From an uncultured Bacilli bacterium (lineage in GTDB: Bacteria > Bacillota_I > Bacilli_A > RF39 > UBA660): a stretch of DNA of 64,000 nucleotides. Location: positions 54,034 to 118,033 of the forward strand of contig CAKOJN010000003.1 in assembly GCA_934090685.1 (NCBI GenBank), in the 5' to 3' direction. Positions within the stretch are counted from its first letter, which is position 1. Each line of letters begins with the position of its first letter. Made by a program: the position numbers and the translations under genes. Shown in pieces: positions 1 through 58,797 of the stretch. Under the pieces are notes generated by a model, which was given only the letters and a program-made list of their open reading frames with translations, made no database searches and was not told the DNA's origin.

Positions 1-1184
1 TTATTAATTCTTATCTTTTTAATGTAATTTTGTTCATCAGTCACTTTTAATTGAGTGCTGTTATCATTTAGTATGGCATTATTGTTATTGTTAATATTAG
101 TGGTATTATTATTATTTGAGAGCAATAATACCATTTTAATAAAATATATTTCAACCAACATTTTTTGACTAGATGTTTTCTTCAACTCATTTGATAATGA
201 GAATAATTCTTGACATAATTTAATGTAAATATCATCTTTAAAATTACAATATTTATCTAATTGAGACTCATATTCACTGTCAAAATAATTTTTAGTATTT
301 TTATAAATCAAAATATCTCTTATGAAAACTTGTAACTTATTACAAACACTATCAAAATTAATACCTTTATTGCAAAATTTTTCTAATATTTTTAATAAAT
401 TTGACATATCAGAATTAAAAATATTATTAACAACTTCTAATAATTCTTCATCAGTTATTTCACCAATTATTTTAAAAATATCATCAGTTGTAATATCATT
501 TTTGTTTAATGATAATATTTGGTCTAAAAGATTTATTGCATCCCTCATTCCGCCATCAGAAATTTTAGCTATTAATTTAATAACTTTATCATTTACAGTT
601 CTATTTTCTAATTTCAAAATTTTATTTAATTGTTTTTCAATTGAATCCGTTGAAATTTTTTCAAAATCAAACTTTTGACATCTTGAAATTACAGTACTCG
701 GAATTTTATTCACCTCTGTTGTAGCTAATATGAATATTGCATGAGCCGGAGGTTCTTCTAAAGTTTTTAATAAGGCATTAAAAGCACTTAATGATAACAT
801 ATGAACTTCATCTATTATATATACTTTATATTTTAATTTACTAGGCATCAAATTTATACTATTTCTAATTTCTCTTATTTCATCAACGCCATTATTACTT
901 GCTGCATCTATCTCTATAATGTCTATTTCATTGTTCATATTATTCAAACATACTTCACATTTTTCACATAAATCTCCAATATTAGGGTTAAGACAATTAA
1001 CTGCTTTAGAAAAAATTTTTGCAATACTAGTTTTTCCAACGCCTCTTGGTCCAGCAAAAATATATGCATGAGCAATTTTATTTTCTTTTATACTATTTTT
1101 CAGTATTTTAACAACTATTTCTTGGCCAACAACATCTTTAAATGTTTTTGGTCTATATTTACGATATAAAGATACATATGTCAT
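1..1184 (-). CDS. dnaX: DNA polymerase III subunit gamma/tau, N-terminal ~394 codons (3' end runs off the window)
   Basis: Absent from the ORF track because there is no stop in the window. Hand translation from ATG at 1184 (GGAGG RBS upstream) gives MTYVSLYRKYRPKTFKDVVGQE..FAGPRGVGKTS (Walker A)..IIDEVHMLS..LKTLEEPP..ISRCQKFDF, the clamp-loader signature. Confidence 0.9.
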   Translation of the reverse strand, partial: MTYVSLYRKYRPKTFKDVVGQEIVVKILKNSIKENKIAHAYIFAGPRGVGKTSIAKIFSKAVNCLNPNIGDLCEKCEVCLNNMNNEIDIIEIDAASNNGVDEIREIRNSINLMPSKLKYKVYIIDEVHMLSLSAFNALLKTLEEPPAHAIFILATTEVNKIPSTVISRCQKFDFEKISTDSIEKQLNKILKLENRTVNDKVIKLIAKISDGGMRDAINLLDQILSLNKNDITTDDIFKIIGEITDEELLEVVNNIFNSDMSNLLKILEKFCNKGINFDSVCNKLQVFIRDILIYKNTKNYFDSEYESQLDKYCNFKDDIYIKLCQELFSLSNELKKTSSQKMLVEIYFIKMVLLLSNNNNTTNINNNNNAILNDNSTQLKVTDEQNYIKKIRIN

Positions 1185-1226
1185 TTTTGCCTCCATAAAT
1201 ATTATAACAGTTTATTAACAATAATT

Positions 1227-1634
1227 CTACCTTTTGTTAACAAAGAATTCCTTTATTTCATTCAAAAAATAATCATTATCAGCAACATCTAATTGCTCAT
1301 ATTTAACTGTATCATTAATTTTTTTTGTTTTACTTAAAATATAATATACTTTTTTTATTCTTGCTTCATTTATTATACTTTTGCACATTTCACAAGGTTC
1401 TAATGTAACATATAATTCACAATCATTAAGATTCCATGTTTTAATTCGTTTGGCAGCTTTTATTATTGCTAAAATTTCAGCATGCGCTAGTGGACTATTT
1501 TTTTTCTGTCTTTTATTATATTCTTTAGCAATTATCTTATTATTTTTCACTATTATACAAGAAACTGGAACATCTCCGTGTTTTAACGCTATATTATTTA
1601 ATTTTTTTAATTGTTCAATAATTATTTTTTTCAT
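1227..1634 (-). CDS. tadA: tRNA-specific adenosine deaminase
   Basis: 135 aa with the CMP/dCMP deaminase zinc motifs HAE..PCEMC. It has the classic tadA/ffs/dnaX neighbourhood. Confidence 0.88.
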   Translation of the reverse strand: MKKIIIEQLKKLNNIALKHGDVPVSCIIVKNNKIIAKEYNKRQKKNSPLAHAEILAIIKAAKRIKTWNLNDCELYVTLEPCEMCKSIINEARIKKVYYILSKTKKINDTVKYEQLDVADNDYFLNEIKEFFVNKR

Positions 1635-1674
1635 ATTATTTTACTCTTATGCAAACATTTTTTCGTATTTTTTT

Positions 1675-1757
1675 AAAAAAATATGTGCACACAATCATTT
1701 TGTTTAAGGCTGCTATCTTCCGATCCTGACCTGTTTCACAAACTAACTGTTGCACGT
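1675..1757 (-). ncRNA. ffs: Small (4.5S-type, ~80 nt) signal recognition particle RNA
   Basis: The minus strand reads GTGCAACAGTTAGTTTGTGAAACAGGTCAGGATCGGAAGATAGCAGCCTTAAACAAAATGATTGTGTGCAC followed by a T-run. The core AGGTCAGG..GGAAG..AGCAGCC matches the conserved SRP domain IV (E. coli 4.5S: CAGGUCAGGUCCGGAAGGAAGCAGCC). The 5' and 3' arms pair into one long hairpin. The ends are approximate. Confidence 0.75.
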
Positions 1758-1761
1758 ATTT

Positions 1762-1791
1762 ATTATATCATTGATTACATATCATTTTCAA
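1762..1791 (-). promoter_or_regulatory. Sigma-A-type promoter for ffs
   Basis: On the minus strand: TTGAAA (1791-1786), an 18-bp spacer, then TATAAT (1767-1762), about 6-8 nt upstream of the SRP RNA 5' arm. Confidence 0.5.
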
Positions 1792-1840
1792 GTATTATTT
1801 TTATTTATTATACATTTGTCATTAATTATTTTAATTAATA

Positions 1841-1856
1841 TGTTTCACGTGGAACA
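1841..1856. promoter_or_regulatory. parS centromere-like site (exact 16-mer)
   Basis: TGTTTCACGTGGAACA is the reverse complement of TGTTCCACGTGAAACA and an exact fit to the Firmicute parS consensus TGTTNCACGTGAAACA. It is embedded in a 36-bp near-palindrome TTAATTAATATGTTTCACGTGGAACATATTAATTAA. Confidence 0.85.
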
Positions 1857-2428
1857 TATTAATTAAAAATCAGTTATTAAAAATAGGTAATATCACATTA
1901 TAATATACATTGAGGTTAAAAATAAATAAATTTTAATATTATCCTTTATAATTGTACATTTTTTTAAATGGCATTTGTATTTTAAATATAAATTAATATT
2001 AAATATTATTATTGTATTTTTAATTATATTATTTATGACATACTTAAAATAATATAATAGGTAATATATATTAAATACATTAATGATTTAATTCTGACAT
2101 TTTAATTTCTTTATATTTTTTAAAAAAGTTTACTATATTAAAATAATATACAATATTTATTATTTTATCTGTTTTATTTATAAAATAATGTTTTTAAAAT
2201 AATAATTTCACTATTCTTGTGTTTTTACTTTTATTGTAAATTGTTAATATTTATTTTAATAGTTACTATCAAATATTTATAAATTTAGAGAGCAATTACT
2301 TTTTATTATATTACTTTTAGTAAATAATTATTAAATGTTTTGTATTAGAACCTTGAAATATATTAAAATACAAAACATTGTTTTGAAATATATAGAATAA
2401 ACAATAATTATTTTTTATCTTAATAAAT

Positions 2429-2444
2429 TATTTCCCGGGAAATA
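2429..2444. promoter_or_regulatory. Noc-binding-site (NBS)-type palindrome
   Basis: TATTTCCCGGGAAATA contains the B. subtilis NBS consensus ATTTCCCGGGAAAT exactly. It is part of a 29-bp segment (2425-2453) repeated identically at 2766-2794. Confidence 0.8.
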
Positions 2445-2726
2445 ATTTATTAATTATAAAATGCTTGATCTATATTTTTATATTTTATTTAAATTAAATT
2501 TATTAATGATAGTTTATTTTTTTAAGTTATATTTTACCTGAATTATAAAACAATATTAATATTTTTTAATTATTTTAAATAAATACGACTTTTTATATTA
2601 TATTTAATGAACTACTATTTTTTAAAAAAATCAATGACATTATAGTATTATAATTGTTTTTTTACAGTTGATACTTACTTTTTAATTTAAAATTATCATA
2701 ATATATAATTTTCATATAAAATGCTA

Positions 2727-2742
2727 TGTTCCACGTGAAACA
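2727..2742. promoter_or_regulatory. parS centromere-like site (exact 16-mer)
   Basis: TGTTCCACGTGAAACA is an exact parS consensus match. It lies 66 bp beyond the gyrA stop. On the minus-strand transcript it would also fold as a hairpin followed by UUUUAU. Confidence 0.85.
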
Positions 2743-2769
2743 TAGTATTTTATAATATAATGTTAAAAT

Positions 2770-2785
2770 TATTTCCCGGGAAATA
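2770..2785. promoter_or_regulatory. Noc-binding-site (NBS)-type palindrome, possibly doubling as the gyrA terminator stem
   Basis: TATTTCCCGGGAAATA is the second copy of the 29-bp repeat AAATTATTTCCCGGGAAATAATTTATTAA (2766-2794). It lies 23 bp beyond the gyrA stop codon. Confidence 0.8.
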
Positions 2786-2807
2786 ATTTATTAAAAAAAG
2801 AAGAAAA

Positions 2808-5393
2808 TTATTCATTTTCTTCATTTAGTTCTTTATCAATAATAGAAATTGAAGCAACTTTGTTGCTATTTTTTAAATTTATTAATTTTACACCTTTAGT
2901 TACCCTTCCCATTTCAGATATATTATTAACATCCATTCTAATGATAATTCCATTTTCAGTAATTATCATTAAATCTTTATCATTATCAGTAGATTTAAAT
3001 CCTATAACTTTACCATTTTTCTCTGATATATTAATGGTTTTAACCCCTTTACTTCCTCTTTTTGTTTCCCTATATTCAGAAATTGAAGTTTTTTTGCCAT
3101 AACCATTTTCTGTAACAACTAATAATAATTTATCGTCTTCAGAAACCTCTGTACCAACGCAAATATCATTTACTAAATTTATGCCTTTAACTCCTGACGC
3201 AGTACGTCCCATAATTCTTACTTCATTTTCATCAAAACGCGCCATTCTTCCGTTTGAAGAACACATTAAGATTTGATTATCACCAGTTGTTTTTTTAACA
3301 GATATTAATTCATCATCATCTTTTAAAGTTATAGCAATTTTTCCTGATTGCCTTATGTTATCAAATTCGCTAATCAAAGTTCTCTTAATTAAACCTTGTT
3401 TTGTACTAAAAAGCAAACATTTGTATGTGTTATCCTTTTCAATTTTAATAATGGTATTAATTTTTTCGTCTTTTTCTATTTGAATCAAATTAATTAATGG
3501 TAATCCCTTACCTACACGAGAATATTCTGGAATATTATAACCTTTCAATCTATAAACTTTACCTTTATTTGAAAAGAATAGTACATAATCATGCGTATTT
3601 AAAGAAATTAATTGTTCAACAAAATCTTCATCTGTTGTTGTCATCCCTTTTATTCCAACTCCACCTCGATTTTGAGATTTATAAGTATCTTTTGGAATTC
3701 TCTTTATATAATTTTTATTTGTAATTGTTACAATTACTTCCTCTTGAGGTATTAAAGATTCGTCTTCGATATAATCTACAGCTGTCATATCAATAGTAGT
3801 TCTTCTGTCATCACCATACTTATTCTTGATTTCTAACATTTCTTTCTTAATAATATCTAAAACTTTCTTTTCTGATGCTAAAATTGATTTTAATTCTTCT
3901 ATTTCTTTTAATAAAGTTTCTAATTCTGCTTCAATTTTTTCTCTTTCTAATCCAGTTAATCTTCTTAATTTTAATTCTAAAATTGCATCCGATTGAATTT
4001 CATCAAGACCAAATCTACTTATCAATTTTAATTTTGCTTCTTGATCTGTTTCTGCTGTTTTAATAATTTTAATTACTTCATCTATATTATCCTGTGCTAT
4101 TTTGTAACCATTCAATATATGTACTCGTTTCTCATCTTTATTTAAATCAAATCTTGTTCTTCTTATAATAACTTCACGTTGATGGTCAATATATTTAGAA
4201 ATAATTGATTTTAATCCCAGCGTTTTAGGAGTTAAACCATCTAACATTAAGAATATTATTCCATAGTTAATTTGAAATGAAGTATGCTTATATAAATTGT
4301 TTAAAACAACTTGAGGATTAGCATCTCTTTTTAATGTAATAGTTATTTTTACTCCATCTTTTAAATCTGTATGGTAATCAGAAATACCTTCAATAACCTT
4401 GGTATGAACTAATTCTGCCACCTTATTCTTAAGTTCCATAGTATTCACTCCAAATGGAACTTCTGTAAATACTATGCAATTATGTCCGTTATGTTCTTCT
4501 ATTGTTGCTTTACTTCTAATTGTTATAGAACCTCTACCTGTTTCATATGCTTTTTTTATGCCAGAATTACCAAGTATTACACCTCCAGTGGGAAAATCAG
4601 GACCTTTTATATATTGCATTAATTCATCTATTGTTATATCAGGATTGTCTATATATGCAACACAACCATCGATAACTTCTGATAAATTATGAGGCGGAAT
4701 ATTAGTTGCCATACCAACTGCAATGCCCATTGAACCATTTACTAAAATATTAGGAAATCTTGATGGTAAAACTTTTGGTTCTTTTTTTGTAACATCAAAG
4801 TTATCATCCATATCAACAGTATCCTTATTTATATCTTTTAATAATTCTAATGATATTTTTGCTAAACGAGATTCAGTATATCTCATTGCAGCAGCACCAT
4901 CACCTTCAACGTTACCAAAATTGCCATGGCCATCTACTAGCATATATCTTTGATTAAAATCTTGTGCTAGACGTACCATTGCTTCATATATTGATGAATC
5001 GCCATGAGGATGATAATGTCCCATAACATATCCAACTGTTGTTGCACATTTTCTATGAGGTTTATCTGGTGTATATCCACATTCATACATTGACCATAAA
5101 ATTCTTCTGTGAACAGGTTTTAAACCATCTCTTAAGTCTGGCAAAGCACGTGATGCTATAACACTCATTGAATATTCTATAAATGATGTACTTACTTCTT
5201 TAACTATATCATTATGATCTAATCTATCTCTCTCGTGAAAATATCCACTAAATTCATTGTCTTTTTTTTCTGCTATTGATGTATTAGTATTATCCAAGTT
5301 ATCTGTTGTTAAAGAATCATTACTATTATCACTATCATTATCTAGTGCTCTGTTTAATAATTCTTCATTAATATTCTTTTCTTCGTTATTCAT
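2808..5393 (-). CDS. gyrA: DNA gyrase subunit A
   Basis: 861 aa with the motifs YSMSVIASRALPDLRDGLKPVHRR and AAMRYTE (active-site Tyr) plus C-terminal beta-pinwheel repeats. A GGAGG RBS precedes the ATG. The N-terminus has an N/D-rich extension. Confidence 0.97.
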   Translation of the reverse strand: MNNEEKNINEELLNRALDNDSDNSNDSLTTDNLDNTNTSIAEKKDNEFSGYFHERDRLDHNDIVKEVSTSFIEYSMSVIASRALPDLRDGLKPVHRRILWSMYECGYTPDKPHRKCATTVGYVMGHYHPHGDSSIYEAMVRLAQDFNQRYMLVDGHGNFGNVEGDGAAAMRYTESRLAKISLELLKDINKDTVDMDDNFDVTKKEPKVLPSRFPNILVNGSMGIAVGMATNIPPHNLSEVIDGCVAYIDNPDITIDELMQYIKGPDFPTGGVILGNSGIKKAYETGRGSITIRSKATIEEHNGHNCIVFTEVPFGVNTMELKNKVAELVHTKVIEGISDYHTDLKDGVKITITLKRDANPQVVLNNLYKHTSFQINYGIIFLMLDGLTPKTLGLKSIISKYIDHQREVIIRRTRFDLNKDEKRVHILNGYKIAQDNIDEVIKIIKTAETDQEAKLKLISRFGLDEIQSDAILELKLRRLTGLEREKIEAELETLLKEIEELKSILASEKKVLDIIKKEMLEIKNKYGDDRRTTIDMTAVDYIEDESLIPQEEVIVTITNKNYIKRIPKDTYKSQNRGGVGIKGMTTTDEDFVEQLISLNTHDYVLFFSNKGKVYRLKGYNIPEYSRVGKGLPLINLIQIEKDEKINTIIKIEKDNTYKCLLFSTKQGLIKRTLISEFDNIRQSGKIAITLKDDDELISVKKTTGDNQILMCSSNGRMARFDENEVRIMGRTASGVKGINLVNDICVGTEVSEDDKLLLVVTENGYGKKTSISEYRETKRGSKGVKTINISEKNGKVIGFKSTDNDKDLMIITENGIIIRMDVNNISEMGRVTKGVKLINLKNSNKVASISIIDKELNEENE

Positions 5394-8525: not shown

Positions 8526-8978
8526 TTATACTTTTCCCTTAATTCTTTCTTCAAGAATATATTTTAATCTTGATGCACGTAAAATTTGATTTGTTAATGA
8601 ACCAATTGATACATCAAATTCTATAATATCTCCATTTTTAAATTCAATAATTGACTTTTTTTGTGAAGATTTATAATACCTATTGATTTTTTCTAAGTTT
8701 ATCCAAATACAATCATTTCTATCTGGAGAAGTTGTCGGAAAAAATATTATTTTTCTACTTTCTTCAACTATTATAGGTGATTTATGAGTTATTCCAAGTA
8801 ACTTTTTTGTTCCTTCTCTTCTTCCGTCAAAAGAACTTCCAAAATACTCGCAGCTGTGTTCCAAAATTTGCATTGGAGTTACATTTACTACATATGACTC
8901 ATTATTTTCTATAATTTTAGAACTCTTACTATCCATAGGCAATATAACTTGAGTATCAAATGTTATTTCATAATCCAT
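8526..8978 (-). CDS. ComK-family competence transcription factor homologue (short, 150 aa)
   Basis: It aligns along its length with B. subtilis ComK as I remember it: FGSSFDGRREGT vs FGSSYAGRKAGT, THKSPIIV vs SHKPPIMV, IIFFPTTSP..DCIWI vs IFLFPTLSS..QCGWI. A strong AAGGAGG RBS is present. Confidence 0.75.
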   Translation of the reverse strand: MDYEITFDTQVILPMDSKSSKIIENNESYVVNVTPMQILEHSCEYFGSSFDGRREGTKKLLGITHKSPIIVEESRKIIFFPTTSPDRNDCIWINLEKINRYYKSSQKKSIIEFKNGDIIEFDVSIGSLTNQILRASRLKYILEERIKGKV

Positions 8979-10466: not shown

Positions 10467-11864
10467 TTATTCACATATTTTTTCCCTTAAAATTTTAATT
10501 TCTTCTTGGAGTTTTAAATTTGTTTTTAATTCTTTAGAAATTTTTTCGTGTGAGTAAATAACAGTAGAATGATCTCTTCCTCCAAATTCTAATCCTATTC
10601 TTTGAAGGCTTTCATCTGTCATTATACGACTTAAATACATTGCAATCGCACGAGCATCTGCAATATTTTTCTTTTTCATTTTTCCTTTTAACATTGATGC
10701 ATCTAAATTAAAATATTTGGATACAATGTCTATTATTTTAGCAACAGAGTTCGTTCTATATACTGTTTTTGGTACAAATTCTTGTAATGCTTCTTGTGCA
10801 ATTTCAAGTGTAACGTCTTTTATATTGAATGCTGCTTTATAAGCAACAATTCTGATAACAGCTCCTTCTAAATTTCTTATGTCACTACCACAATTGTTTG
10901 CTATATAATCTATAACCAATTCATTAATATCTAAGTCAAAGTCATTGATCATTATTTTATTTTTTATAATATTTTTCTTTAACTCTAATTCAGGTGGATT
11001 AATTGATTCTGTTAATCCCCATCTAAATCTAGTTTTTAGTCTTTCTTCTAAATACTTATAATCATTAATTGATGTGTCGGAAGCAATAATAATTTGCTTT
11101 TCATTGTCATATAGCGTATTAAAGGTATTTGTAAATTCAATTTGTGATTTAGTAGCATTTTCTAAAAATTGAATATCATCAATCATCAATACATCTACAC
11201 TTCTGTATTTATCTCTAAAAGCTTCTAAATAAGTTACATTATTATCAAATTTATTTTTAGCATTAATAATTGCTCTGTAATCATTTGTAAATTGTTCTGC
11301 AGTAATATATAAAACTTTCTTATCAGAATGAGTAACAATATAATTTCCAATTGCATGCATAAGATGTGTTTTACCAAGACCACTTTTAGCATATATAAAA
11401 TATGGGTTATAAAGTTTTCCTGGATTTTGAGCAACGGCAAGTGCAGTACCATATGCCAATCTATTAGATTCACCTACTACGAAAGTATCAAAAGTATATT
11501 TTTGATTAAAATTACTTATATATTTATAATTATTAATATTATTATTTATAGATTCATCATTATCTTTATTTAAAATATCATCTCTTTTTGCTTTTTTTTG
11601 TTCTAATTTATTTATATCTCTTTCAAAAATATATTCTATTTCACACGTATCATTAGTGATATCATCAATTAATTCTTGAATTATAGAAGTATAATTTTTA
11701 GTTATATTTTGTAAAAGTAACTCATTTGATGGAACAATAATTATCATTTTACTGTTTTCATATGAATATAGTTTTAAGTCTTTAAATAAATAATTATAAG
11801 ACATTAATGAAACTTTAGTTTTAATTTTAGATAAAAATTCATTCCATATTTCATTTGAATCCAT
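10467..11864 (-). CDS. dnaA: Chromosomal replication initiator DnaA
   Basis: AAA+ Walker A GLGKTHLMHAIGN, Walker B LMIDDIQF, and domain IV ..GGRDHSTVIYSHEKI. The track start at 11885 is a TTG. The ATG at 11864 (MDSNEIW) has the best spacing from the GGAAAGGA RBS. Confidence 0.95.
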   Translation of the reverse strand: MDSNEIWNEFLSKIKTKVSLMSYNYLFKDLKLYSYENSKMIIIVPSNELLLQNITKNYTSIIQELIDDITNDTCEIEYIFERDINKLEQKKAKRDDILNKDNDESINNNINNYKYISNFNQKYTFDTFVVGESNRLAYGTALAVAQNPGKLYNPYFIYAKSGLGKTHLMHAIGNYIVTHSDKKVLYITAEQFTNDYRAIINAKNKFDNNVTYLEAFRDKYRSVDVLMIDDIQFLENATKSQIEFTNTFNTLYDNEKQIIIASDTSINDYKYLEERLKTRFRWGLTESINPPELELKKNIIKNKIMINDFDLDINELVIDYIANNCGSDIRNLEGAVIRIVAYKAAFNIKDVTLEIAQEALQEFVPKTVYRTNSVAKIIDIVSKYFNLDASMLKGKMKKKNIADARAIAMYLSRIMTDESLQRIGLEFGGRDHSTVIYSHEKISKELKTNLKLQEEIKILREKICE

Positions 11865-11885
11865 AATAATCATCCTTTCCAACAA

Positions 11886-15899: not shown

Positions 15900-17759
15900 A
15901 TGAAGTATGATGTAATAGTAGTAGGTGGAGGACATGCTGGATGTGAAGCAGCGTCTGTAAGCGCTAAAATGGGTAAAAAAACATTGTTAATTACAATTAA
16001 TATTAATAATATAGCTGATATGCCATGTAATCCATCTATAGGAGGTTCAGCAAAAGGAATAGTTGTTAGAGAAATTGACGCTTTGGGTGGTCAAATGGGA
16101 TATTGTGCAGATAGAACTCATTTACAAATTAAAATGTTGAATGTTAAAAAAGGTCCAGGTGTTAGATCATTAAGAGCACAAGGATGTAAAGTAAATTATC
16201 CAAAAGAGATGTTAAATCAACTTAAAAAATTAGAAAATTTAACAATAAAAGAAGATATAGTCAAAGAATTAATAGTTGAAAATAAAAAAGTATATGGAAT
16301 ATTAACTGAATCCGGAGAAAGAATATATAGCAAAGTTGTAATATTAACGACAGGAACATATTTAAATTCTGATATAATGTGTGGTCACGAAAAATATAAA
16401 GGTGGTCCACATGGTGAAAAAAATTCCATATATTTAAGTACATTTTTAAAAAACAATGGAATTAATATAATTAGACTTAAAACAGGGACTCCGCCACGTA
16501 TTTTAAAAAGTAGTATCAACTTTGATGAGGTTAAAATAGAAAATGGTGATAACAATTTATTAACATTCAGTAATTTTTATAATGCAACATATCTTATTGA
16601 TAAACAAGTTCCATGTTATTTAACTTATACTAATAAGGAGACACATAAAATTATAATGGATAATTTAGATAAATGTGCTTTGTATAGCGGAATGATTAAA
16701 GGAATTGGACCAAGATATTGCCCGTCTATAGAAGATAAAGTAGTAAAATTTAATGATAAAGAAAGACATCAAATATTTTTAGAACCAGAAAGAAGTGACG
16801 ATATAGAATACTATGTAGGTGGTTTTTCGACAACTATGCCACATGAAATTCAAGAAAAACTATTAAAAACTATGGATGGTCTTCATAATGTAAAAATTAC
16901 TAAATATGGTTATGCAATTGAATATGATGCTATAGATCCATTACAATTAAAAATGAATTTAGAAAATAAAATATTAGAAAACTTATTCACAGCTGGTCAA
17001 ATTAATGGTACGAGTGGTTATGAAGAAGCAGCAGCACAAGGTTTAATGGCTGGTATTAATGCTGTTTTAAAAATAGATAATAAAGAACCTTTTATTTTAA
17101 AAAGAAATGAAGCATATATTGGAGTTTTAATAGATGATTTAATAAATAAAGGAATAACTGAACCATATAGATTATTAACATCAAGAGCTGAATTTAGATT
17201 GTTACTAAGACATGATAATGCTATGATTAGATTAACAAAATATGCTGAAAAATATAATTTACTTAATGATTTTGAAAAAAATAAATATCACGAAACACTT
17301 AGTGAAATAGAAAAATTAAAAAAATATTTAAATACAACTTATGTTACCCCTAAGGAAATTGAATCATTTTTAGAACAACATAATTCATCAAAAATATATA
17401 AAAAATTATTATTAAGCGACATAATAAAAAGACCAGAAATAGATACTAAGGAGTTATTACAATTTGAAAATGAAATTTATGACGAAAATGTTATTGAAAT
17501 AGTTCAAACTGAAATAAAATATAAAGGTTATATTGATAAAACAATAAATGAAGTTGAAAAAATGTTAAAATTAGAAAATAAAAAAATACCTAATGATATT
17601 AATTATGATAAAGTACCAAATATTGCTACAGAAGCTAGACAAAAATTCACTAAAATAAGACCATTAACTATAGGACAAGCATCAAGAATTAGTGGTGTAA
17701 ATCCAGCAGATATAACAATGCTATTGGTATATTTAAAAAAGGAATATAATCATGACTAA
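15900..17759 (+). CDS. mnmG: tRNA uridine 5-carboxymethylaminomethyl modification enzyme MnmG (GidA)
   Basis: FAD motif VIVVGGGHAGCEAA, with the GPRYCPSIEDK motif at full length (619 aa). Confidence 0.95.
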   Translation: MKYDVIVVGGGHAGCEAASVSAKMGKKTLLITININNIADMPCNPSIGGSAKGIVVREIDALGGQMGYCADRTHLQIKMLNVKKGPGVRSLRAQGCKVNYPKEMLNQLKKLENLTIKEDIVKELIVENKKVYGILTESGERIYSKVVILTTGTYLNSDIMCGHEKYKGGPHGEKNSIYLSTFLKNNGINIIRLKTGTPPRILKSSINFDEVKIENGDNNLLTFSNFYNATYLIDKQVPCYLTYTNKETHKIIMDNLDKCALYSGMIKGIGPRYCPSIEDKVVKFNDKERHQIFLEPERSDDIEYYVGGFSTTMPHEIQEKLLKTMDGLHNVKITKYGYAIEYDAIDPLQLKMNLENKILENLFTAGQINGTSGYEEAAAQGLMAGINAVLKIDNKEPFILKRNEAYIGVLIDDLINKGITEPYRLLTSRAEFRLLLRHDNAMIRLTKYAEKYNLLNDFEKNKYHETLSEIEKLKKYLNTTYVTPKEIESFLEQHNSSKIYKKLLLSDIIKRPEIDTKELLQFENEIYDENVIEIVQTEIKYKGYIDKTINEVEKMLKLENKKIPNDINYDKVPNIATEARQKFTKIRPLTIGQASRISGVNPADITMLLVYLKKEYNHD

Positions 17760-18468
17760 AGAAGAATTTATTAATTATTGTAGAGAATTAGGAGTTAATA
17801 TAACCGATGAACTTTATATTATGCTTAATAAATATTACGAATTGTTAGTTGAATGGAATAAGAAGTTTAATATGACTAGTATATTGGATAAAAAACAAGT
17901 TTTCTTATTACATTTTTATGATTCAATATGTTTAAATAAAGTTATAGATTTAAATAAAGAATGTTCATTATGTGATTTTGGTACAGGTGCAGGTTTCCCT
18001 GGTATGGTGATTGCAATATTATTTAATAAAGTAAATGTAACACTAATAGAATCAAATCAAAAAAAATGTAAATTTTTAGAATATATAAAAAAAGAATTTA
18101 ATCTAAAAAATGTAAATGTAATATGTTCAAGAATTGAAGTATTTGGAGTTGAAAATAGAGAAATTTTTGATTATGTAACTTGTAGAGCAGTAACATCATT
18201 ACCAATAATAATAGAATTATCTACGAGCACATTAAAAGTGAATGGTTATTTAGCACCATTAAAAGCAGATTGCAGTGATGAAATTGAAAAATTTGAACTA
18301 TCTGAACTATTAAAAAACTTCAATTTAGAATTAATTAAAGTTAACAATTACAATTTACCTATACAAAATGCTAATAGAATGATTCCTTTGTTCAAGAAGA
18401 CAGCAATCACATCAAAAAAATATCCTAGTAATTATAGTACTATTGTAAAAAAATATAAAAAAAAGTAA
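17752..18468 (+). CDS. rsmG: 16S rRNA (guanine527-N7)-methyltransferase RsmG (GidB)
   Basis: SAM motif DFGTGAGFPG. It overlaps the mnmG stop. Confidence 0.9.
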   Translation: MTKEEFINYCRELGVNITDELYIMLNKYYELLVEWNKKFNMTSILDKKQVFLLHFYDSICLNKVIDLNKECSLCDFGTGAGFPGMVIAILFNKVNVTLIESNQKKCKFLEYIKKEFNLKNVNVICSRIEVFGVENREIFDYVTCRAVTSLPIIIELSTSTLKVNGYLAPLKADCSDEIEKFELSELLKNFNLELIKVNNYNLPIQNANRMIPLFKKTAITSKKYPSNYSTIVKKYKKK

Positions 18469-18544
18469 AATGGTATTTTTACTGTTGATTATATGTAAAA
18501 AATCAATTAAAATATATATATAATAGGGAAAAAGAGGAAAAAGG

Positions 18545-19699
18545 ATGGAAGAAAAAGATAAAATAATTTATGTTTCAGTAGATGATATAATTCCGAATAG
18601 ATTTCAACCAAGACTTGCTTTTGATGAAAAAGAATTAAACAGTTTGTCTGAATCTATTAAAAAATATGGTGTTATCCAACCAATTGTATTAAGAAAAATT
18701 GGTGAGAAATATGAAATAATAGCAGGTGAAAGAAGATATAAGGCCTCTCTTTTAGCGGGTTTAATGAAAATACCAGCTATAATAAACCAAACGGATGATA
18801 ACACAAGTGCTGAAATAGCATTATTGGAGAATCTTCAAAGAAAAAATTTAACAGTAATAGAGGAAGCACAATCATATAAAAAATTATTAGATAGAGGTTT
18901 TACCCAAGATGAAATAGCAAATAAATTAGGGGTTAGTCAATCATCTATAGCTAATAAATTAAGACTTTTAAATTTGCCTAAAGAAGTCCAAGAAGCTTTA
19001 TTATATAACAAAATTTCTGAACGTCATGCAAGAAGTTTACTATCATTAAATAATAAAGAAAAACAAATTCAATTATTAAACAAAATAATTAATGAAAAAT
19101 TAACTGTTAAACAAACCGAAGAAGAAATAAGTGATATATTAAATAACAAAACAAACTTTAATTTTGAAACTAATGATCTAACAACTACTAATAATAAAAG
19201 TGATAAATCTGTTCAAGAATTTTTAAATATAGATGTTCCAGAAGTAATAAGTATTGGTCAAGAAATTGAAAATGATATACCAGAAAATAGTCACAATCAA
19301 ATAGAAATAAAAAATATTGAATCTAATTCTCTATCGATAAACCCTTTCCAAGAAAATTTTATGGATAAGATAAAAGAAATAAATGAAATTAGTAGTCAAG
19401 AAATATCACCTGATATGGAAAGTAAAATAGAAAAGTTAGAATTAGAAACTAGGCCAAATTTAATGAAAAATAATGAAACTAGTATTTTTAATAGTTCTAA
19501 TAATAATGTTCAAATTCAAATGAAAGAGCATGATGAATCTGATAATTCTGCTAGTAATAAACAACTAAGTTTGCCAAAAGTGATTGAAAAAATAAGAAAT
19601 CTAATTACAGAATTAAACTATGATAATAATGTTATTTCTACTAGTGAAGTGGATTTATCTGATCAATATCAAATAGTAATTAATATAAAAAAAGAGTAG
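18545..19699 (+). CDS. ParB-family CTPase/DNA-binding protein, Noc-like by HTH residues
   Basis: IPNRFQPR, IIAGERRYKA (CTP-binding GERR box), QSSIANKLRLLNLPKEVQEA and ISERHARSL resemble B. subtilis Noc (PNRFQPR, QSTIANKLRLL, ITERHARAL) more than Spo0J (PNPYQPR, RPHIANHLRLL, SMGHGRTL). About 130 aa of N/S/E-rich insert precedes the C-terminal domain. Confidence 0.8.
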   Translation: MEEKDKIIYVSVDDIIPNRFQPRLAFDEKELNSLSESIKKYGVIQPIVLRKIGEKYEIIAGERRYKASLLAGLMKIPAIINQTDDNTSAEIALLENLQRKNLTVIEEAQSYKKLLDRGFTQDEIANKLGVSQSSIANKLRLLNLPKEVQEALLYNKISERHARSLLSLNNKEKQIQLLNKIINEKLTVKQTEEEISDILNNKTNFNFETNDLTTTNNKSDKSVQEFLNIDVPEVISIGQEIENDIPENSHNQIEIKNIESNSLSINPFQENFMDKIKEINEISSQEISPDMESKIEKLELETRPNLMKNNETSIFNSSNNNVQIQMKEHDESDNSASNKQLSLPKVIEKIRNLITELNYDNNVISTSEVDLSDQYQIVINIKKE

Positions 19700-19808
19700 G
19701 AAAAAATAATTTTCTTACTTTTTGTTTACACTTTTAAGTTAAATTATTTTGAATATTTTTTTTTATAATGATATAATTATTATAGAAATATAGAAAAGAG
19801 GTATGTAT

Positions 19809-20963
19809 ATGGGTTTAATTAAAGCTCTTACTGGAGCAACTTCTACAGCATTAGGAGATCAATTTAAAGAATTTGTTAATTGTCCTACCATAGAAAAAAA
19901 TGTTTTAATACAAAGAGGAATTGTTACACATGGTAAAGGAAATACTAATCCTTCTGAAGGAATAATTTCTAATGGTAGTACAATTGTTGTACCACAAGGT
20001 ATGGCTATGATGATCATAGAAAATGGTGAAATTAAAGAATTTACAGCAGATGCTGGTACGTTTTATTTTGATACAAGTAGTGAACCGAGTATATTTACAG
20101 GAGGACTTGGTAAAGGTATAATTGATACCTTTAAAACAATAGGTAAAAGGTTTACGTATGGAGGGCAAACTGCTAAGGATCAAAGAGTTTATTACGTTAA
20201 TTTATTAACAATAACAGGAAATAAATTCGGTTCTCCTCAACCAAAAAAAATTACTGATGAAAAATATGGTATGTTAGAAGTAACTTTTTTTGGAGAATTC
20301 GCATTTAAAGTAGTTGATCCAATATTATTAGTAAATAGTGTTATAGGTGCTAATCCTCAAGATACTATTACTTATGAAGAAATTATAGGTAGTCAATTAC
20401 AATCAAAATTTGTTGAAAAAGTTACGCAAGCAATATCAGTAGTAATGAGAAAAAATAAGGTTTCATTTGGTGATATAGGAATGTATAATAGTGATATATC
20501 AGATGAAATGAATGTTTGTTTAGATGAAAGTTGGAAACAAAAATATGGTTTAGAAGTAACAGATGTTGCTTTAGGTGATATTAATCTAACAGATGATTCA
20601 ATGAAGAAAGTAAATAAAGTTGATGAGGCAACTATTTTCTCAAATAAAAATTTACAATCTGGACTTATGGCTTCAGCATCAGCGGATGCTTTAAGAAATG
20701 CTTCTAGTAATGAAAATGGTTCTATGATGGGATTCATGGGTATGAATATGGCTAGTTCAGCAGCAGGAAGTATGATGGGAGTAGCAAATGAAGGTTCTGA
20801 TGTGGAAGGATATAAACCGGAAACTAATCAACCCGAAATAGGTACAATATTTAATAATAAAAAAGAAGAAACTACAAAAAATAAAGAAAAAGTAACTTGT
20901 CCTAAATGTAAGGCAGAGGTTAATGGTGCATATTGTAGTCAATGCGGAACTAAAATAGAGTAA
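19809..20963 (+). CDS. SPFH-domain protein of the YdjI / COG4260 'virion core protein-like' family with a C-terminal zinc ribbon
   Basis: The N-terminus MGLIKAL..GDQFKEF.. is typical of the family. The C-terminus has CPKC..CSQCG. The start is taken at the second ATG for RBS spacing. Confidence 0.6.
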   Translation: MGLIKALTGATSTALGDQFKEFVNCPTIEKNVLIQRGIVTHGKGNTNPSEGIISNGSTIVVPQGMAMMIIENGEIKEFTADAGTFYFDTSSEPSIFTGGLGKGIIDTFKTIGKRFTYGGQTAKDQRVYYVNLLTITGNKFGSPQPKKITDEKYGMLEVTFFGEFAFKVVDPILLVNSVIGANPQDTITYEEIIGSQLQSKFVEKVTQAISVVMRKNKVSFGDIGMYNSDISDEMNVCLDESWKQKYGLEVTDVALGDINLTDDSMKKVNKVDEATIFSNKNLQSGLMASASADALRNASSNENGSMMGFMGMNMASSAAGSMMGVANEGSDVEGYKPETNQPEIGTIFNNKKEETTKNKEKVTCPKCKAEVNGAYCSQCGTKIE

Positions 20964-25368: not shown

Positions 25369-25878
25369 ATGAAAAAAATAGTTATAATTATAGGTATTTT
25401 ATTTATAATACTAATTAATTATGAAAAACAAGATTATTTAGTGAATGATAGCATTAGATTTAGAGTAATCTCAAATAGTGATTCTGCAAAAGATGTATTA
25501 ATAAAACAAAAGGTGAGTAGAAAAATTTCTAATATTATTTTTGATAAAGGTAATTCTAAAGATGATGTAAGAAAGAACATTTTAAAAAATATCAGTAAAA
25601 TTGAAAAAGAAGTAGATCAAGTTTTAACTGATAATGATTATGATAATGAATTTAATATAAATTATGGTTATAATTATTTTCCAGAAAAAGAGTATAATGG
25701 AAGAACATTAGAAGCAGGAAATTATGAATCATTGGTTGTTACAATTGGAAAAGGTGATGGTAATAATTATTGGTGTATTTTGTATCCACCACTATGTATG
25801 ATAAACGAAGATGATAGTGTGGGTAATAAAATAAAATATAAATTTAAGTTAATAGAATATATTAAAAACATATTATAA
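25369..25878 (+). CDS. spoIIR: Stage II sporulation protein R
   Basis: Signal/TM followed by IRFRVISNSDS and NYWCILYPPLC, the two signature blocks of SpoIIR. Confidence 0.8.
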   Translation: MKKIVIIIGILFIILINYEKQDYLVNDSIRFRVISNSDSAKDVLIKQKVSRKISNIIFDKGNSKDDVRKNILKNISKIEKEVDQVLTDNDYDNEFNINYGYNYFPEKEYNGRTLEAGNYESLVVTIGKGDGNNYWCILYPPLCMINEDDSVGNKIKYKFKLIEYIKNIL

Positions 25879-32125: not shown

Positions 32126-32555
32126 ATATTTGTCCAATATAATAATTGAGAAGCCTCATAAAATTATAGTATTAATATTTATTTATTATTTATTAGTATT
32201 ATATAGAGTATAAGTCAATTAATAGTGAAAAAATTCTAATTTTATTTCACATATTGTATTTGATATTTTCGTTATTATTAATCAATTATATGTTTTTAAT
32301 TAATATTAACTTATTGATTATTTATGTATTTATCTTATTAATAATAATTTATATCTTAATACTTAATGTTGAAATATGTATCTTATTAAAAATAAGATTT
32401 AGAATCCTAATCTACTAAGGACAAATGATATATCGTTGAGAAAGTAAAACTCAAAAAGATTAGAAATTAAGCTAAATACTGATAATATTTAGAAGTATTT
32501 ATATTAAAGTAATATTTAATATAAATGATTCTTAATTTATTTTCGCGAAACTCGG

Positions 32556-33055: not shown

Positions 33056-34132
33056 ATGGAACCATATAAAGCAAAAAAATTGGAATTAAATTATAATTAT
33101 AGTAATGATATACTAAAAATTTTAAATGATACCATGGAAGCTTATGGAGAATATAAGGGCTATTTAAAAAATATGAGTTATGATTATAAAAATTTTTTAG
33201 ATACCTTATTTGTAAATGAGACATATTATTCATTTAAAATAGACAATATGGATATTAAAAAAGAAGACATGTTTTATATACCTTATAAAAATAAAAATAA
33301 TACTGTAATAGAATTTATTAATATGAGAAAAGCGTTAATAGTTGGACTAACAGAATCTAATAAAACTGGTTTTGATACTTTATTCTTTAATAAAATGAAT
33401 AAAATAATATATTCAAATTGTAAAAAAGATAACACAACTAAAAAAAGTGGCCTTTTAAGAAAAAAACAAACTTTTTTATTAAAACCTGGTCTTGCTGGTT
33501 CAAGTGTTTCATATATTCCTCCTAAGTATACAGAACTTGCAAAATTAATGGGAGATTTAAGTCAATATTTAAATGAAAATGTTAATAGAAATTTTATTTC
33601 AGTTGCACTAAGCCATTATCAATTTGAAAAATTACATCCATATTTATCTGGCAATGGTTTAATGGGTAGATTACTAATTCCTATTGAAACATCTTATTAT
33701 AAAAATGAACCACCATTATTATTTATATCAGAAAGTTTATATAATTTAAAAAACACTTATTTTACTTTATTAAGTAACTCTGATATAGAACAAAATGATA
33801 AATTTATCAAATTCTTCTTACAGTGTGTAATCGAGCAGTGCAATTTAAATATTAAAAAAATTAAGTTACTAAATAAAATATATAATACTGATATACAAAA
33901 ATTTAAAACTGAAATAGGTGGTAGCACAATTTATAAGATTTATCCTATAATTGTTAAAAAAATAGTATTTACTGTTAACGATATAGTTACAGAAAGTAAG
34001 TTACATATTAATTCAGTAAATAAAGTACTAAATAAACTAGTTGCATCTGGTTACTTAATTAAAGAGAAGAAAAAAGAAACTAATAGAGTAACTTATTGTT
34101 ATAAGAATATGCATGATGTATTTGTTAAGTAG
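33056..34132 (+). CDS. Fic-domain protein (Fic_N + Fic + C-terminal winged-helix) with a non-canonical active-site motif
   Basis: HPYLSGNGLMGR occupies the position of HPFx[D/E]GNGRxxR. The N-terminal NETYYSFKIDN corresponds to the EAxxSSxIEG block. The C-terminal ..LNKLVASGYLIKEKK.. is wHTH-like. Confidence 0.75.
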   Translation: MEPYKAKKLELNYNYSNDILKILNDTMEAYGEYKGYLKNMSYDYKNFLDTLFVNETYYSFKIDNMDIKKEDMFYIPYKNKNNTVIEFINMRKALIVGLTESNKTGFDTLFFNKMNKIIYSNCKKDNTTKKSGLLRKKQTFLLKPGLAGSSVSYIPPKYTELAKLMGDLSQYLNENVNRNFISVALSHYQFEKLHPYLSGNGLMGRLLIPIETSYYKNEPPLLFISESLYNLKNTYFTLLSNSDIEQNDKFIKFFLQCVIEQCNLNIKKIKLLNKIYNTDIQKFKTEIGGSTIYKIYPIIVKKIVFTVNDIVTESKLHINSVNKVLNKLVASGYLIKEKKKETNRVTYCYKNMHDVFVK

Positions 34133-37545: not shown

Positions 37546-39270
37546 ATGAGTTATATTAAGGAATGCGAAGAATATATATTAAATGTATTTGAATCATGTG
37601 GTTATGATATATCAGAAGTTATTTTAGAAGTATCTTCTAGAGAAGATTTAGGAGAATTTCAAGTAAATACATGTATGTCCTTAGCGAAAAAATATGGTAA
37701 AAATCCAAGAGTGATTGCTGAAGAAATAATTAGTAATTTTGATGATAGATTTGAAAATGTAAATATTGCTGGTCCTGGGTTTATTAATGTAAGTATAAAT
37801 AAGAATCAACTGCTTAATGTTGTGAACAGTAGTTTAAAAGATTTAAGTTATTTAATAGATAAAGATAAGAATAAAACAATTATTATTGATTATGGTGGTG
37901 CAAATGCTGCGAAAACACTCCATATAGGACATATGAGGTCTGCAAATATAGGTGAATCATTAAAAAGATTATCTGCATTATTAGGAAACAAAATGATTGG
38001 AGATGTTCATTTAGGAGATATTGGAAGACAATCTGGAATGGTTATATCTGAAATTAAGAAAAGAAAACCAAATTTATGTTTTTTTGATAAAAACTATAAA
38101 GGTGATTATCCAAAATTAGAAATAACACCAGAAGAATTAAGTATATATTATCCAAGCGCTAGCAATGATGCTAAAGAAAATCCTGAAAGAATGGAAGAAG
38201 TTAGAAAAATCACTGCACTTGTAGATGAGGGAATAGAACCATATATAAGTATGTGGAAAGATATAGTAGAAGTCTCTAAACAAGAAATAAAAAAGACATA
38301 TGATTATTTAAATTGCCATTTTGATTTGTGGGAAGGTGAATTAAGTTCATTAAAATATATCAAAGATACTTTAAAAGTATTAGAACCATATATGTATGAG
38401 TCTGATAAAGCAAAAGTAATAGATGTAAAAAGAGAAGATGATAAGATAGAATTTCCTCCATTAATAGTTATAAAAAATGACGGTTCTTCAATATATGCAA
38501 CAAGAGATTTAGCAACAATATATAATAGAATTAATTTATATAATCCCGATGAAATTTGGTATGTTGTTGACATGAGACAATCAATGTATTTTGAACAAGT
38601 GTTTAGAGCATCATATAAATCTAAATTAGTAAAAGAAAATTGTAAACTTAATTACTATGGTTTTGGTACTATGAATGGTAAAGATAAAAAACCATTTAAA
38701 ACTAGAGATGGTGGAGTTTTACAATTAAATGATTTAATAAAAATGATAAAGGATGAATTAAGCAAACGAATTAGTTCATCAAGTAGTGAAGAAGAAAAAG
38801 AAGAAATATTAAATAAATTAACAGTAGCGACAATTAAATTTGCTGATCTATTACCTTATCGTACTACTGATTATATTTTTGATTTAGAAAAATTTTGTTC
38901 ATTTGAAGGAAAAACAGGGCCATATATTTTATATAGTATGGTAAGAATAAAATCAATACTAAATAAAGTAGATTATAAATCTTTTAGTATACACGATATT
39001 TATAGTGATTCAGAACGAAAACTATATGTAAAATTATTAAGTTTATCAAAGATATTAAATAAATCCTATAATGAAAAAACTTTGAGTTATATATGCGAAT
39101 ATTTATATGAATTATGTAGTATATTTAATAAATTTTATTCAGAAACTAATATTATTAATGAAACAAATAACGAAAGAAAAGAGACATATATAACATTATT
39201 ACATTTAATATTGAATATTTGTACTACTTTATTAGATGTATTAGCAATAGAAATTCCAGATAAAATGTAA
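37546..39270 (+). CDS. argS: Arginine--tRNA ligase
   Basis: Class I HIGH (AKTLHIGHMRS), GDIGRQ, an N-terminal Arg-tRNA-synthetase add-on domain, and a DALR-like C-terminus. 574 aa. Confidence 0.85.
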   Translation: MSYIKECEEYILNVFESCGYDISEVILEVSSREDLGEFQVNTCMSLAKKYGKNPRVIAEEIISNFDDRFENVNIAGPGFINVSINKNQLLNVVNSSLKDLSYLIDKDKNKTIIIDYGGANAAKTLHIGHMRSANIGESLKRLSALLGNKMIGDVHLGDIGRQSGMVISEIKKRKPNLCFFDKNYKGDYPKLEITPEELSIYYPSASNDAKENPERMEEVRKITALVDEGIEPYISMWKDIVEVSKQEIKKTYDYLNCHFDLWEGELSSLKYIKDTLKVLEPYMYESDKAKVIDVKREDDKIEFPPLIVIKNDGSSIYATRDLATIYNRINLYNPDEIWYVVDMRQSMYFEQVFRASYKSKLVKENCKLNYYGFGTMNGKDKKPFKTRDGGVLQLNDLIKMIKDELSKRISSSSSEEEKEEILNKLTVATIKFADLLPYRTTDYIFDLEKFCSFEGKTGPYILYSMVRIKSILNKVDYKSFSIHDIYSDSERKLYVKLLSLSKILNKSYNEKTLSYICEYLYELCSIFNKFYSETNIINETNNERKETYITLLHLILNICTTLLDVLAIEIPDKM

Positions 39271-55021: not shown

Positions 55022-55963
55022 ATGAAGAGAAAATTCATAGTATTTTTTATATTGTTTATAATTATGCTGTGTAGTTACAATAAAAATGCATTAGATGATG
55101 ATATTAATAAAGTATCAACATCAGAAAATATAAAAGAAGAAAATAAAACAACAGAAGAAGAAAAAGAACCTATAATGGTAGCAGTAAACTATCAAAATGA
55201 TACAAAAAAATTGGATTTAGAAGAATATGTATTTGGAGTTGTGTCATGTGAAATGCCAGCTTCTTTTGAGATGGAAGCATTAAAAGCAATGGCAGTTGCA
55301 TCTAGAACATTTGCATTATATAAGTTACAATCAAATGAGAACTATGTTTTATCAAGTACTACATCAGATCAATGTTATTCTAGTATAGACAAATTAAAAT
55401 CAAGATGGAAAGATAAATATGATACTAATTATGAAAAAATAAAAAAAGCAGTAGCAGAAACAAAAGGAAAATACATATCATATGATGATAAAGCAATATA
55501 CGCAGCATACTTTTCAATATCAAATGGATATACTGAAAACTCTGAAGATGTATTTGTTAAAAAATTACCTTATTTAAAAAGTGTAAATTCATCTTGGGAT
55601 AAAAATTATTCATATAAAGAATCTGATAAAGAATATACAGTTTCTGAGTTTTTAAATAGATTAGGAATAAATGATGATAAAATTGAAAATATAAAAATAG
55701 AAAAATGTTCTCATGGTAGAGTTGATACAATATATGTAAACAATCATAAATATAAGGGAACTAAGTTTAGAACATTATTATCATTAAAATCGACTGATTT
55801 TGAAATAAAAAATATTAATGGTAAAGTGATAATACATACAAAAGGATATGGACATGGAGTTGGAATGAGCCAATATGGTGCTAATGGGATGGCTTTAGAA
55901 GGATATAAATATAATGAAATTATAAATCATTACTATACAGATGTAAAAATAATGAATAAATAA
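55022..55963 (+). CDS. spoIID: SpoIID/LytB-domain lytic transglycosylase (stage II sporulation protein D-like)
   Basis: LEEYVFGVVSCEMPASFEMEALKAMAVASRTFA and GHGVGMSQYGANGMA signature blocks. Confidence 0.82.
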   Translation: MKRKFIVFFILFIIMLCSYNKNALDDDINKVSTSENIKEENKTTEEEKEPIMVAVNYQNDTKKLDLEEYVFGVVSCEMPASFEMEALKAMAVASRTFALYKLQSNENYVLSSTTSDQCYSSIDKLKSRWKDKYDTNYEKIKKAVAETKGKYISYDDKAIYAAYFSISNGYTENSEDVFVKKLPYLKSVNSSWDKNYSYKESDKEYTVSEFLNRLGINDDKIENIKIEKCSHGRVDTIYVNNHKYKGTKFRTLLSLKSTDFEIKNINGKVIIHTKGYGHGVGMSQYGANGMALEGYKYNEIINHYYTDVKIMNK

Positions 55964-56633: not shown

Positions 56634-56763
56634 GCATATTTATGCTTATTTTTTATTTTATAGAAAAATTTGTTCTTTGAATTAAATTTACTAATTTCCC
56701 TATAATAATTGAAAAAAATGTATAATTGTGGTATTATTAAATAAGTACAATAAGGAGCATCTT

Positions 56764-58762: not shown

Positions 58763-58772
58763 GACAAAAAAT

Positions 58773-58797
58773 AAAAGCCTAGATTTTCTAGGTTTTT
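58773..58797. terminator. Bidirectional terminator between convergent agrAC-like and agrBD-like operons
   Basis: AAAAGCCTAG-atttt-CTAGGTTTTT, with an A-run on one side and a T-run on the other. Confidence 0.65.

Follow-up and report, generated by a model that had tools for sequence, protein, structure and literature searches.

The stretch of DNA analysed here (the window) comprises 64,000 nucleotides from an uncultured Bacilli bacterium (contig CAKOJN010000003.1, positions 54,034 to 118,033) and carries, at 18545-19699 on the forward strand, a gene encoding a 384-residue member of the ParB family that resembles Noc. Noc and ParB are the textbook case of two paralogous DNA clamps whose site specificity and function have diverged: ParB segregates chromosomes from parS sites at the origin, whereas Noc tethers scattered Noc-binding sites (NBS) to the membrane. 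The Noc-like open reading frame (ORF) is preceded by a good ribosome-binding site, AGAGGAAAAAGG, and lies 76 bp behind the end of rsmG (17752-18468, forward strand). Its downstream neighbour (19803-20963, forward strand) encodes an SPFH/Band_7_1 protein with a C-terminal zinc ribbon, and the local gene order is rpmH-rnpA-yidC-jag-mnmE-mnmG-rsmG, the Noc-like gene, the SPFH gene and, on the opposite strand, a gene for a class A penicillin-binding protein. The GC content of the window ranges from 20 to 30%, and the sign of the GC skew switches at about 12 kb, next to dnaA (10467-11885, reverse strand).

An earlier interpretation made from the letters alone, hereafter the sequence-only reading, had noted a single ParB-family gene at the canonical rsmG-noc-soj-spo0J position with the SPFH gene next to it, and our domain search confirmed this arrangement. 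It had further described the gene as the sole ParB-family gene, lacking a soj-spo0J partner, which holds as a local statement: when the window protein and the Spo0J, Soj and MinD sequences of B. subtilis were used as tblastn queries, no second ParB and no ParA/Soj was detected in the window, and neither ParB nor ParA was found within 10 kb past either window end (84 kb around oriC in all). The frame upstream of the ORF reads YI-stop-stop-GKRGKR-M, and the nearer of the two in-frame stops, a TAG at 18524-18526, is located 21 nt before the ATG. Together with the short gap behind rsmG, these stops exclude a longer N-terminus, as had been claimed, and the protein starts 16 residues ahead of its PNRFQPR motif.

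The Noc-like protein is composed of an N-terminal CTP-binding (cytidine triphosphate-binding) ParB_N domain (residues 1-98; 18545-18838) with the motifs PNRFQPR, GERRYK and ENLQRK, a helix-turn-helix (HTH) DNA-binding domain (residues 99-203; 18839-19153), an acidic linker (residues about 203-340; 19154-19564) and a C-terminal domain of one helix and two strands (residues 341-384; 19565-19696), which contains the predicted dimerisation block LPKVIEKIR...YQIVINIKKE. Pfam models support the first two domains (ParB_N, PF02195, 108 bits; HTH_ParB, PF17762, 117 bits). The best NCBIfam model is TIGR04285 (nucleoid_noc) with 272.2 bits, which is below its cut-off of 315 because the C-terminal part of the model is unmatched (profile positions 2-208 of 255 are covered), and the parB_part domain model TIGR00180 is passed with 171 bits against a cut-off of 58.45. 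The closest solved structures are those of Noc from Geobacillus (7NFU, 203 bits) and Bacillus (7OL9, 179 bits), followed by Spo0J (6SDK, 161 bits). The N-terminal domain is as close to Noc as to Spo0J (46-48% identity), whereas the HTH domain shares 51-56% identity with Noc and 42-44% with Spo0J, which bears out the proposal that the DNA-recognition region is Noc-like. A spo0J/noc chimera, considered on account of the equidistant N-terminal domain, is an unnecessary assumption, and a deletion within noc-soj-spo0J would yield the opposite order of domains.

AlphaFold2, run with 14 homologues, predicted residues 1-203 and 343-381 to be folded and residues 203-340 to be disordered, with a predicted local distance difference test score (pLDDT) mostly below 50. 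The linker corresponds to the long N/S/E-rich insert that the sequence-only reading had placed before the dimerisation block; it is 138 residues long, consists to 43% of N, E and S, and has a net charge of -16. Canonical Noc carries an N-terminal membrane-targeting helix, alpha1, as well as a conserved helix alpha2, and its membrane binding is subject to CTP-gated autoinhibition (PMC8429893). The amphipathic membrane-targeting peptide had been reported missing from the window protein; in fact, both alpha1 and alpha2 are absent, and the N-terminus is also too short to contain a ParA-interaction peptide. Within the CTP-binding domain, GERRYK (residues 61-66; 18725-18742) replaces GERRxR, with Lys in place of the third Arg. 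This variant is invariant in the 14-sequence alignment and present in most of the distant sequences that we read, a few of which have GERRFK.

Which site the protein recognises can be predicted from four residues of the HTH domain. In a deep mutational scan, Q173 was assigned the contact to A:T at NBS position 1 and R201 that to C:G at position 6, and one Lys at either 179 or 184 sufficed to license Q173/R201 for NBS (PMC7383237). R173 was invariant among parS-specific variants, and variants with dual specificity, which are obtainable experimentally, mostly had T or S at position 201 (PMC7383237). The window protein has Q173, K179, N184 and R201 (numbering of Jalal et al. 2020), and thereby matches the NBS-type set Q173/K179/K184/R201 at three of four positions, with Asn at 184; the parS-type pair R173/G201 is absent. 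Scoring of the known specificity-determining positions thus returned Noc-type and not ParB-type residues, and since the published rules ask for Q173, R201 and one Lys at 179 or 184, the QKNR combination is predicted to be NBS-specific. From its residues, we would expect the window protein to bind NBS and not parS.

Sites of both types are present in the window. With parS written as TGTTNCACGTGNAACA and NBS as TATTTCCCGGGAAATA, we found two perfect copies of each, all of them in a single AT-rich non-coding gap of 1.04 kb that extends from the signal recognition particle RNA gene and tadA to gyrA (1765-2807). They are, in order, parS TGTTTCACGTGGAACA at 1841-1856, a 16-bp NBS, TATTTCCCGGGAAATA, at 2429-2444, parS TGTTCCACGTGAAACA at 2727-2742 and a second 16-bp NBS at 2770-2785; the latter two form a parS-NBS pair, 43 bp apart from start to start. 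No other match occurs in the 64 kb even when up to two mismatches are tolerated, and about 0.1 would be expected by chance. The sequence-only reading was thus correct in placing perfect sites of both kinds away from the gene, and we here read the gyrA-tadA gap as a composite centromere region.

To learn how general this arrangement is, we can turn to a scan of a metagenome collection for parS followed by NBS within 10-40 nt, a pattern with 28 specified bases and a chance expectation of essentially zero. It returned parS-NBS pairs on at least 120 contigs. The GC content of 119 of the 120 listed loci is 19-38%, mostly 21-31%, and gyrA, tadA and/or dnaX adjoin the sites in 114 of the 120 (by tblastn), with GyrA proteins 47-99% identical to that of the window. 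Given that these relatives keep the same gyrA-tadA/dnaX context as the window, the site region is conserved across a deep radiation.

In 119 of these loci, 680 sites fit the 16-bp palindrome frame. Nearly all belong to one of two discrete classes, with 379 pure parS sites and 291 pure NBS sites against about 10 hybrids, and a parS half is joined to an NBS half in a single site only. NBS is almost always TATTTCCCGGGAAATA with the flanks AAAW and WTTT. At position 5 of parS either T or C is accepted, and its flanks are an invariant A and T; such tolerance is not seen in NBS. Discrete classes with differing flanks indicate two specific readers, given that a single relaxed reader should have let hybrids accumulate. 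This, and the Q173/R201 combination, leaves the relaxed or dual specificity raised by the sequence-only reading unsupported.

The sites are clustered, and the two classes are interleaved. A cluster has a median span of 415 bp and a median content of three parS and two NBS, and in 708 kb of flanking DNA outside the clusters we counted only two parS and 21 NBS. Many of these outlying NBS are located a few kb from the cluster, within the coding sequence of dnaX or ybaB. No parS or NBS was found on the noc side of oriC in 235 kb, made up of 12 loci from several lineages that run from dnaN through the Noc-like gene and 10 kb beyond it. Among neighbouring sites within 60 bp, 233 were parS-NBS and 19 same-type pairs, compared to 178 ± 5.7 and 74 ± 5.7 when the labels were shuffled; the shuffles were conditioned on the scan criterion, since the scan demanded one parS-NBS pair per locus. 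Start-to-start spacing of parS and NBS peaks at 25-29 and at 32-37 bp, and some loci contain tandem arrays of the parS+NBS unit with periods of 61, 72, 105 or 106 bp.

Two further observations concern individual loci (L numbers are our own). Perfect NBS occur within the dnaX frame or at its end in L013, L029, L040, L042, L047, L051, L057, L064, L068, L085, L089 and L108; an ...IISREII... reading was noted in L035 and L111, and those inside ybaB (L070, L116) encode ...(L/I)FPGKY.... Apparently, these sites are retained even within coding sequence at a distance of a few kb from the cluster, but no NBS is present in the dnaX fragment of the window. Separately, the metagenome contig L093, with a GC content of 49%, encodes a canonical-looking noc-like gene (QKQR), soj and spo0J at about 690-4080, and carries parS at 1991 and NBS at 2038 between the noc-like gene and soj. 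Given this locus, parS-NBS pairing may not be limited to the low-GC lineage.

The protein belongs to a large family. An exhaustive HMMER search with residues 1-215 as the query against 1.84 billion cluster representatives, from which the best 150 matches were taken, places at least 150 clusters at 50% identity in the family, and over the first ~200 residues the query matches these best 150 representatives with 57-80% identity. Each of the 150 carries Q173 and R201, and 116 carry the full QKNR set. None of the 150 has an N-terminal extension, and PNRFQPR is found at an offset of 14-21 in 146 of them. Their lengths range from 227 to 775 residues (median 478). Homologues down to 54% full-length identity share the MEEKDK... 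start, a long, variable, acidic linker and a C-terminal LPKVI...YQIIIxI block. rsmG lies upstream of every family member whose neighbourhood was examined, and neither soj nor spo0J follows the gene in the window, in six homologues down to ~40% full-length identity or at the CAG:1000 locus. The SPFH gene keeps its place next to the Noc-like gene down to 54% identity, and only within the CAG:1000 / CAG:524 subclade. In the window it carries its own promoter-like site, although such hits are no commoner than in shuffled sequence; co-transcription of the Noc-like gene with the SPFH gene is unsupported.

In the sources, the family proteins are named only 'ParB/RepB/Spo0J family partition protein', and our literature search returned no description of such a helix-less Noc-like family or of parS-NBS pairing. 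We regard them as a large, previously undescribed subfamily. Its hosts are uncultured bacteria of low GC content from gut and rumen, and the names of related records place them close to 'Clostridium sp. CAG:1000' and to a metagenome-assembled genome called 'Bacilli bacterium'; CAG-1000 is a family of the GTDB order RF39. The closest species-representative genome record, with a 91% identical protein (L004, contig CAVBMP010000099.1), is labelled 'Bacteroides helcogenes' at a GC content of 24% and is probably a mislabelled or contaminated bin.

Despite its variability, the linker contains short conserved motifs. In the window protein these are FLNIDVPEVISI (19220-19255), in which the clade shows no variation at I229, P232, V234 and I237, and INPFQ (19337-19351). 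The pattern I-x-x-P-x-V-x-x-I within the former, as well as INPFQ, is invariant in homologues down to 54% identity, and in distant members a related motif, GF(M/L)(N/D)ID..I...A.DI, seems to be present, read by eye and uncounted. A further motif, [GN][KR]FFN[FL], occurs in 84 of the best 150 representatives and takes the place of INPFQ in the linkers of most distant members. The canonical Noc membrane helix has the sequence SFSRFFGLG, with a hydrophobic moment of 0.50-0.62 and a hydrophobicity of 0.40-0.54; the [GN][KR]FFN[FL] segment at least equals these values (0.70 and 0.62, respectively). Given this internal amphipathic motif in many family members, the missing N-terminal helix alone does not prove that membrane association is missing. 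In the window's clade, INPFQxNF stands in place of the KFFN motif, and the most amphipathic stretch has low hydrophobicity and a net negative charge. The linkers of three members (P0170, P0178 and P0236) consist of many tandem units of 15-20 residues, such as MPEFNFEVPSVETPAVEPV, in proteins of up to 775 residues.

Given that the site classes are discrete and that the window protein has NBS-type residues, a separate, canonical ParB that reads parS and is encoded elsewhere in the genome is strongly implied. The sequence-only reading had raised this option, which the site classes and the residue rules favour, although no ParB gene turned up in the loci examined, apart from that of the unrelated L093. 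An arrangement of this kind has a precedent in S. aureus, in which Noc is encoded after rsmG, ParB is encoded separately and ParA is absent (PMC5540599). We considered two candidates. Linkage of parB to rpsF-ssb-rpsR, as in S. aureus, does not apply, given that these genes (39.4-40.4 kb in the window) are preceded by typA and argS and not by parB/ychF. The second was a ComK-family gene beside dnaN. ComK recognises AT-boxes rather than GC-core palindromes, and we rejected the gene as a parS reader on this ground. As an observation in its own right, this gene (PF06338, 150 residues; 8526-8978, reverse strand, between dnaN and recF) is found beside dnaN in every family lineage examined (L001, L007, L137, L138, L140, L141), and such a fixed origin-proximal position is unusual for a competence regulator in apparently reduced genomes.

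Among known systems, the window protein is most similar to Noc of B. subtilis, Geobacillus and S. aureus. It shares with Noc the ParB_N CTPase and HTH domains, a position directly after rsmG (gidB) near oriC, the closest recognition region, the residues Q173, K179 and R201, perfect copies of the 16-bp NBS TATTTCCCGGGAAATA in the genome and a similar dimerisation block. It differs in the missing helices alpha1 and alpha2, the score below the TIGR04285 cut-off, N184 instead of K184, GERRYK instead of GERRxR, and the acidic, disordered linker with its short conserved motifs, which exceeds 500 residues in some relatives. It also differs in that the NBS seen here are concentrated by parS in one gap near oriC, whereas those of B. 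subtilis (roughly 70 sites) and S. aureus are scattered. For S. aureus Noc, chromatin immunoprecipitation sequencing (ChIP-seq) identified 41 dispersed loci (PMC5540599). With ParB/Spo0J, the protein has in common the two-domain clamp architecture, a passed TIGR00180 model and origin-proximal, centromere-like sites, and its 'AGERRY.A..AGL..PAI' segment is nearer to ParB than to canonical Noc. Unlike ParB, it has Q173/R201 and not R173/G201, lacks a ParA-interaction peptide and an adjacent ParA, and is predicted not to read parS. Taken together, it is most like Noc in DNA recognition, yet lacks the membrane-targeting helix and stays below the curated Noc threshold, and it is not ParB. We propose to describe it as a member of a Noc-like subfamily that lacks the N-terminal helices, has a long linker and is coupled to a centromere of paired parS and NBS.

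The comparison with S. aureus also concerns function. There, noc likewise stands alone after rsmG without soj, and a separate ParB is the likely reader of parS; its Noc keeps the N-terminal helix, unlike the window protein. S. aureus Noc controls replication initiation, and pairing of parS with NBS is not reported in the same paper (PMC5540599). RicO of S. aureus, which tethers and organises origins, may be compared in function alone (bioRxiv 10.64898/2026.03.06.710092). It is a protein of another, unrelated family, its amphipathic helix is C-terminal and it does not act as a CTP clamp; we claim no homology.

We consider it fairly probable that the Noc-like protein is a CTP clamp that loads at NBS and works at a composite centromere, together with a separate ParB on parS, and not in chromosome-wide nucleoid occlusion. 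The protein would be an NBS-specific member of the ParB/Noc family of CTPase clamps, from a subfamily that seems to have lost both N-terminal Noc helices and to have gained a long, acidic, disordered linker with short motifs ahead of the dimerisation domain. It would load at the 16-bp NBS, which in the DNA seen here are concentrated in the gyrA-tadA gap, ~8-10 kb from oriC; they stand beside parS there, preferentially in parS-NBS pairs spaced by 25-37 bp, start to start. parS would be read by the canonical ParB from elsewhere in the genome; ParA may be missing, as it is in S. aureus. Given that the loading sites alternate at 25-37 bp, both clamps would have to share the same few hundred bp, in which they could confine each other or co-assemble into one complex. 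Jointly, the two related clamps might build an origin-proximal nucleoprotein complex. The linker motifs might form the output end of this complex, probably joining it to a partner or, in members with KFFNF, perhaps to the membrane, and the role may lie in origin organisation, tethering or replication control. Extending this reading to a whole radiation of low-GC gut and rumen bacteria is a good deal more tentative: in these organisms, alternating parS and NBS might constitute a bipartite centromere that loads ParB and a helix-less Noc derivative, the latter repurposed as an origin organiser or tether through its INPFQ, KFFNF and FLNID linker motifs.

Several points weigh against a composite centromere with two readers. 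A ParB gene was found neither in the window and the 10 kb on each side of it nor in ~770 kb to ~1 Mb of related origin-proximal loci, with the exception of the unrelated L093. The ascertainment bias of a scan that requires a pair is handled only through the conditioned shuffles, and the tandem arrays represent recent duplications, so that the pair counts are somewhat inflated and not fully independent. The Lys in GERRYK and the Asn at position 184 are departures from canonical sequence that may affect CTP binding and affinity. Finally, the DNA seen here is origin-proximal, and NBS far from the origin, and with them a nucleoid-wide role, are possible.

The lack of a second ParB-family gene in 84 kb around oriC, beside any family member examined and in the related loci could also mean that the genome encodes no other ParB and that the window protein binds both parS and NBS. 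Such a reader would fit with Asn rather than the canonical Lys at position 184, and dual-specificity variants can be engineered (PMC7383237). We nevertheless consider it very unlikely. Q173 and R201 are present in each of the best 150 representatives, whereas parS binders have an invariant R173, and most of the published variants that read both sites carry T or S at 201 (PMC7383237). The sites themselves argue in the same direction, given that they are bimodal with ~10 hybrids among 680, that their flanks differ by type and that parS alone varies at position 5. Genuine nucleoid occlusion is a more serious competitor, if still an unlikely one. Here, the protein would attach to the membrane through an internal amphipathic linker motif or through a partner, for example the SPFH protein, and further NBS would be scattered elsewhere in the genome. 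The [GN][KR]FFN[FL] motif, which resembles the canonical Noc helix and is at least as amphipathic, is found in 84 of the 150 representatives, the SPFH gene is conserved down to 54% identity, and 21 NBS lie outside the clusters. However, the KFFN motif is missing from the clade of the window protein, which offers a weakly hydrophobic, net negative segment in its place, more distant family members lack the SPFH neighbour, and most out-of-cluster NBS are within a few kb of a cluster, in dnaX or ybaB. No NBS was found in the remaining 62 kb of the window or in the 235 kb across oriC, and a helix moved into the linker would be uncoupled from CTP-gated autoinhibition (PMC8429893).

It is barely conceivable that the gene is a degenerating remnant, that is, a functionless noc truncated after deletion of soj-spo0J, with its sites as relics. 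The reduced, AT-rich genome, the short N-terminus, the low-complexity middle and the score below the curated Noc threshold would be in line with decay. Against it stand the 57-80% identity of the first 200 residues over 150 or more clusters formed at 50% identity, and the invariance of the CTP-binding, DNA-binding and linker motifs as well as of the C-terminal domain. Likewise, the GC-rich 16-bp sites stay perfect in DNA of 21-31% GC, although GyrA is only 47-99% identical between the loci.

If the composite-centromere reading holds, a very large natural subfamily has kept the DNA specificity of Noc without the feature that defines the Noc mechanism, and its sites are paired with parS. This would provide a natural system to study the interplay of two CTP clamps loaded 25-37 bp apart, which might block each other, co-condense or cooperate. 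It would also bear on the role of Noc before or without membrane tethering, and on origin organisation in reduced genomes that lack ParA. The generic 'ParB/RepB/Spo0J family partition protein' label that is currently used is also corrected.

Other features of the window are worth recording. Sporulation-associated genes are retained in this small genome of ~24% GC, namely those for SpoIIR (25369-25878), SpoIID (55022-55963) and an M23 peptidase that is possibly SpoIIQ-like (56001-56633). They are followed by an agr-like quorum-sensing module (56728-59547) with a LytTR response regulator, a histidine kinase and, on the opposite strand, AgrB; a 38-residue ORF beside AgrB was seen in L139. An Rfam PGK RNA motif (RF03040, 80.9 bits; 32400-32492, forward strand) precedes a small ORF and a gene of the Fic/DOC family (33056-34132). 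Lastly, two paralogues of arginyl-tRNA synthetase are encoded ~26 kb apart, one at 37546-39270 and the other ~4.6 kb beyond the right end of the window (L139 15125-16792).

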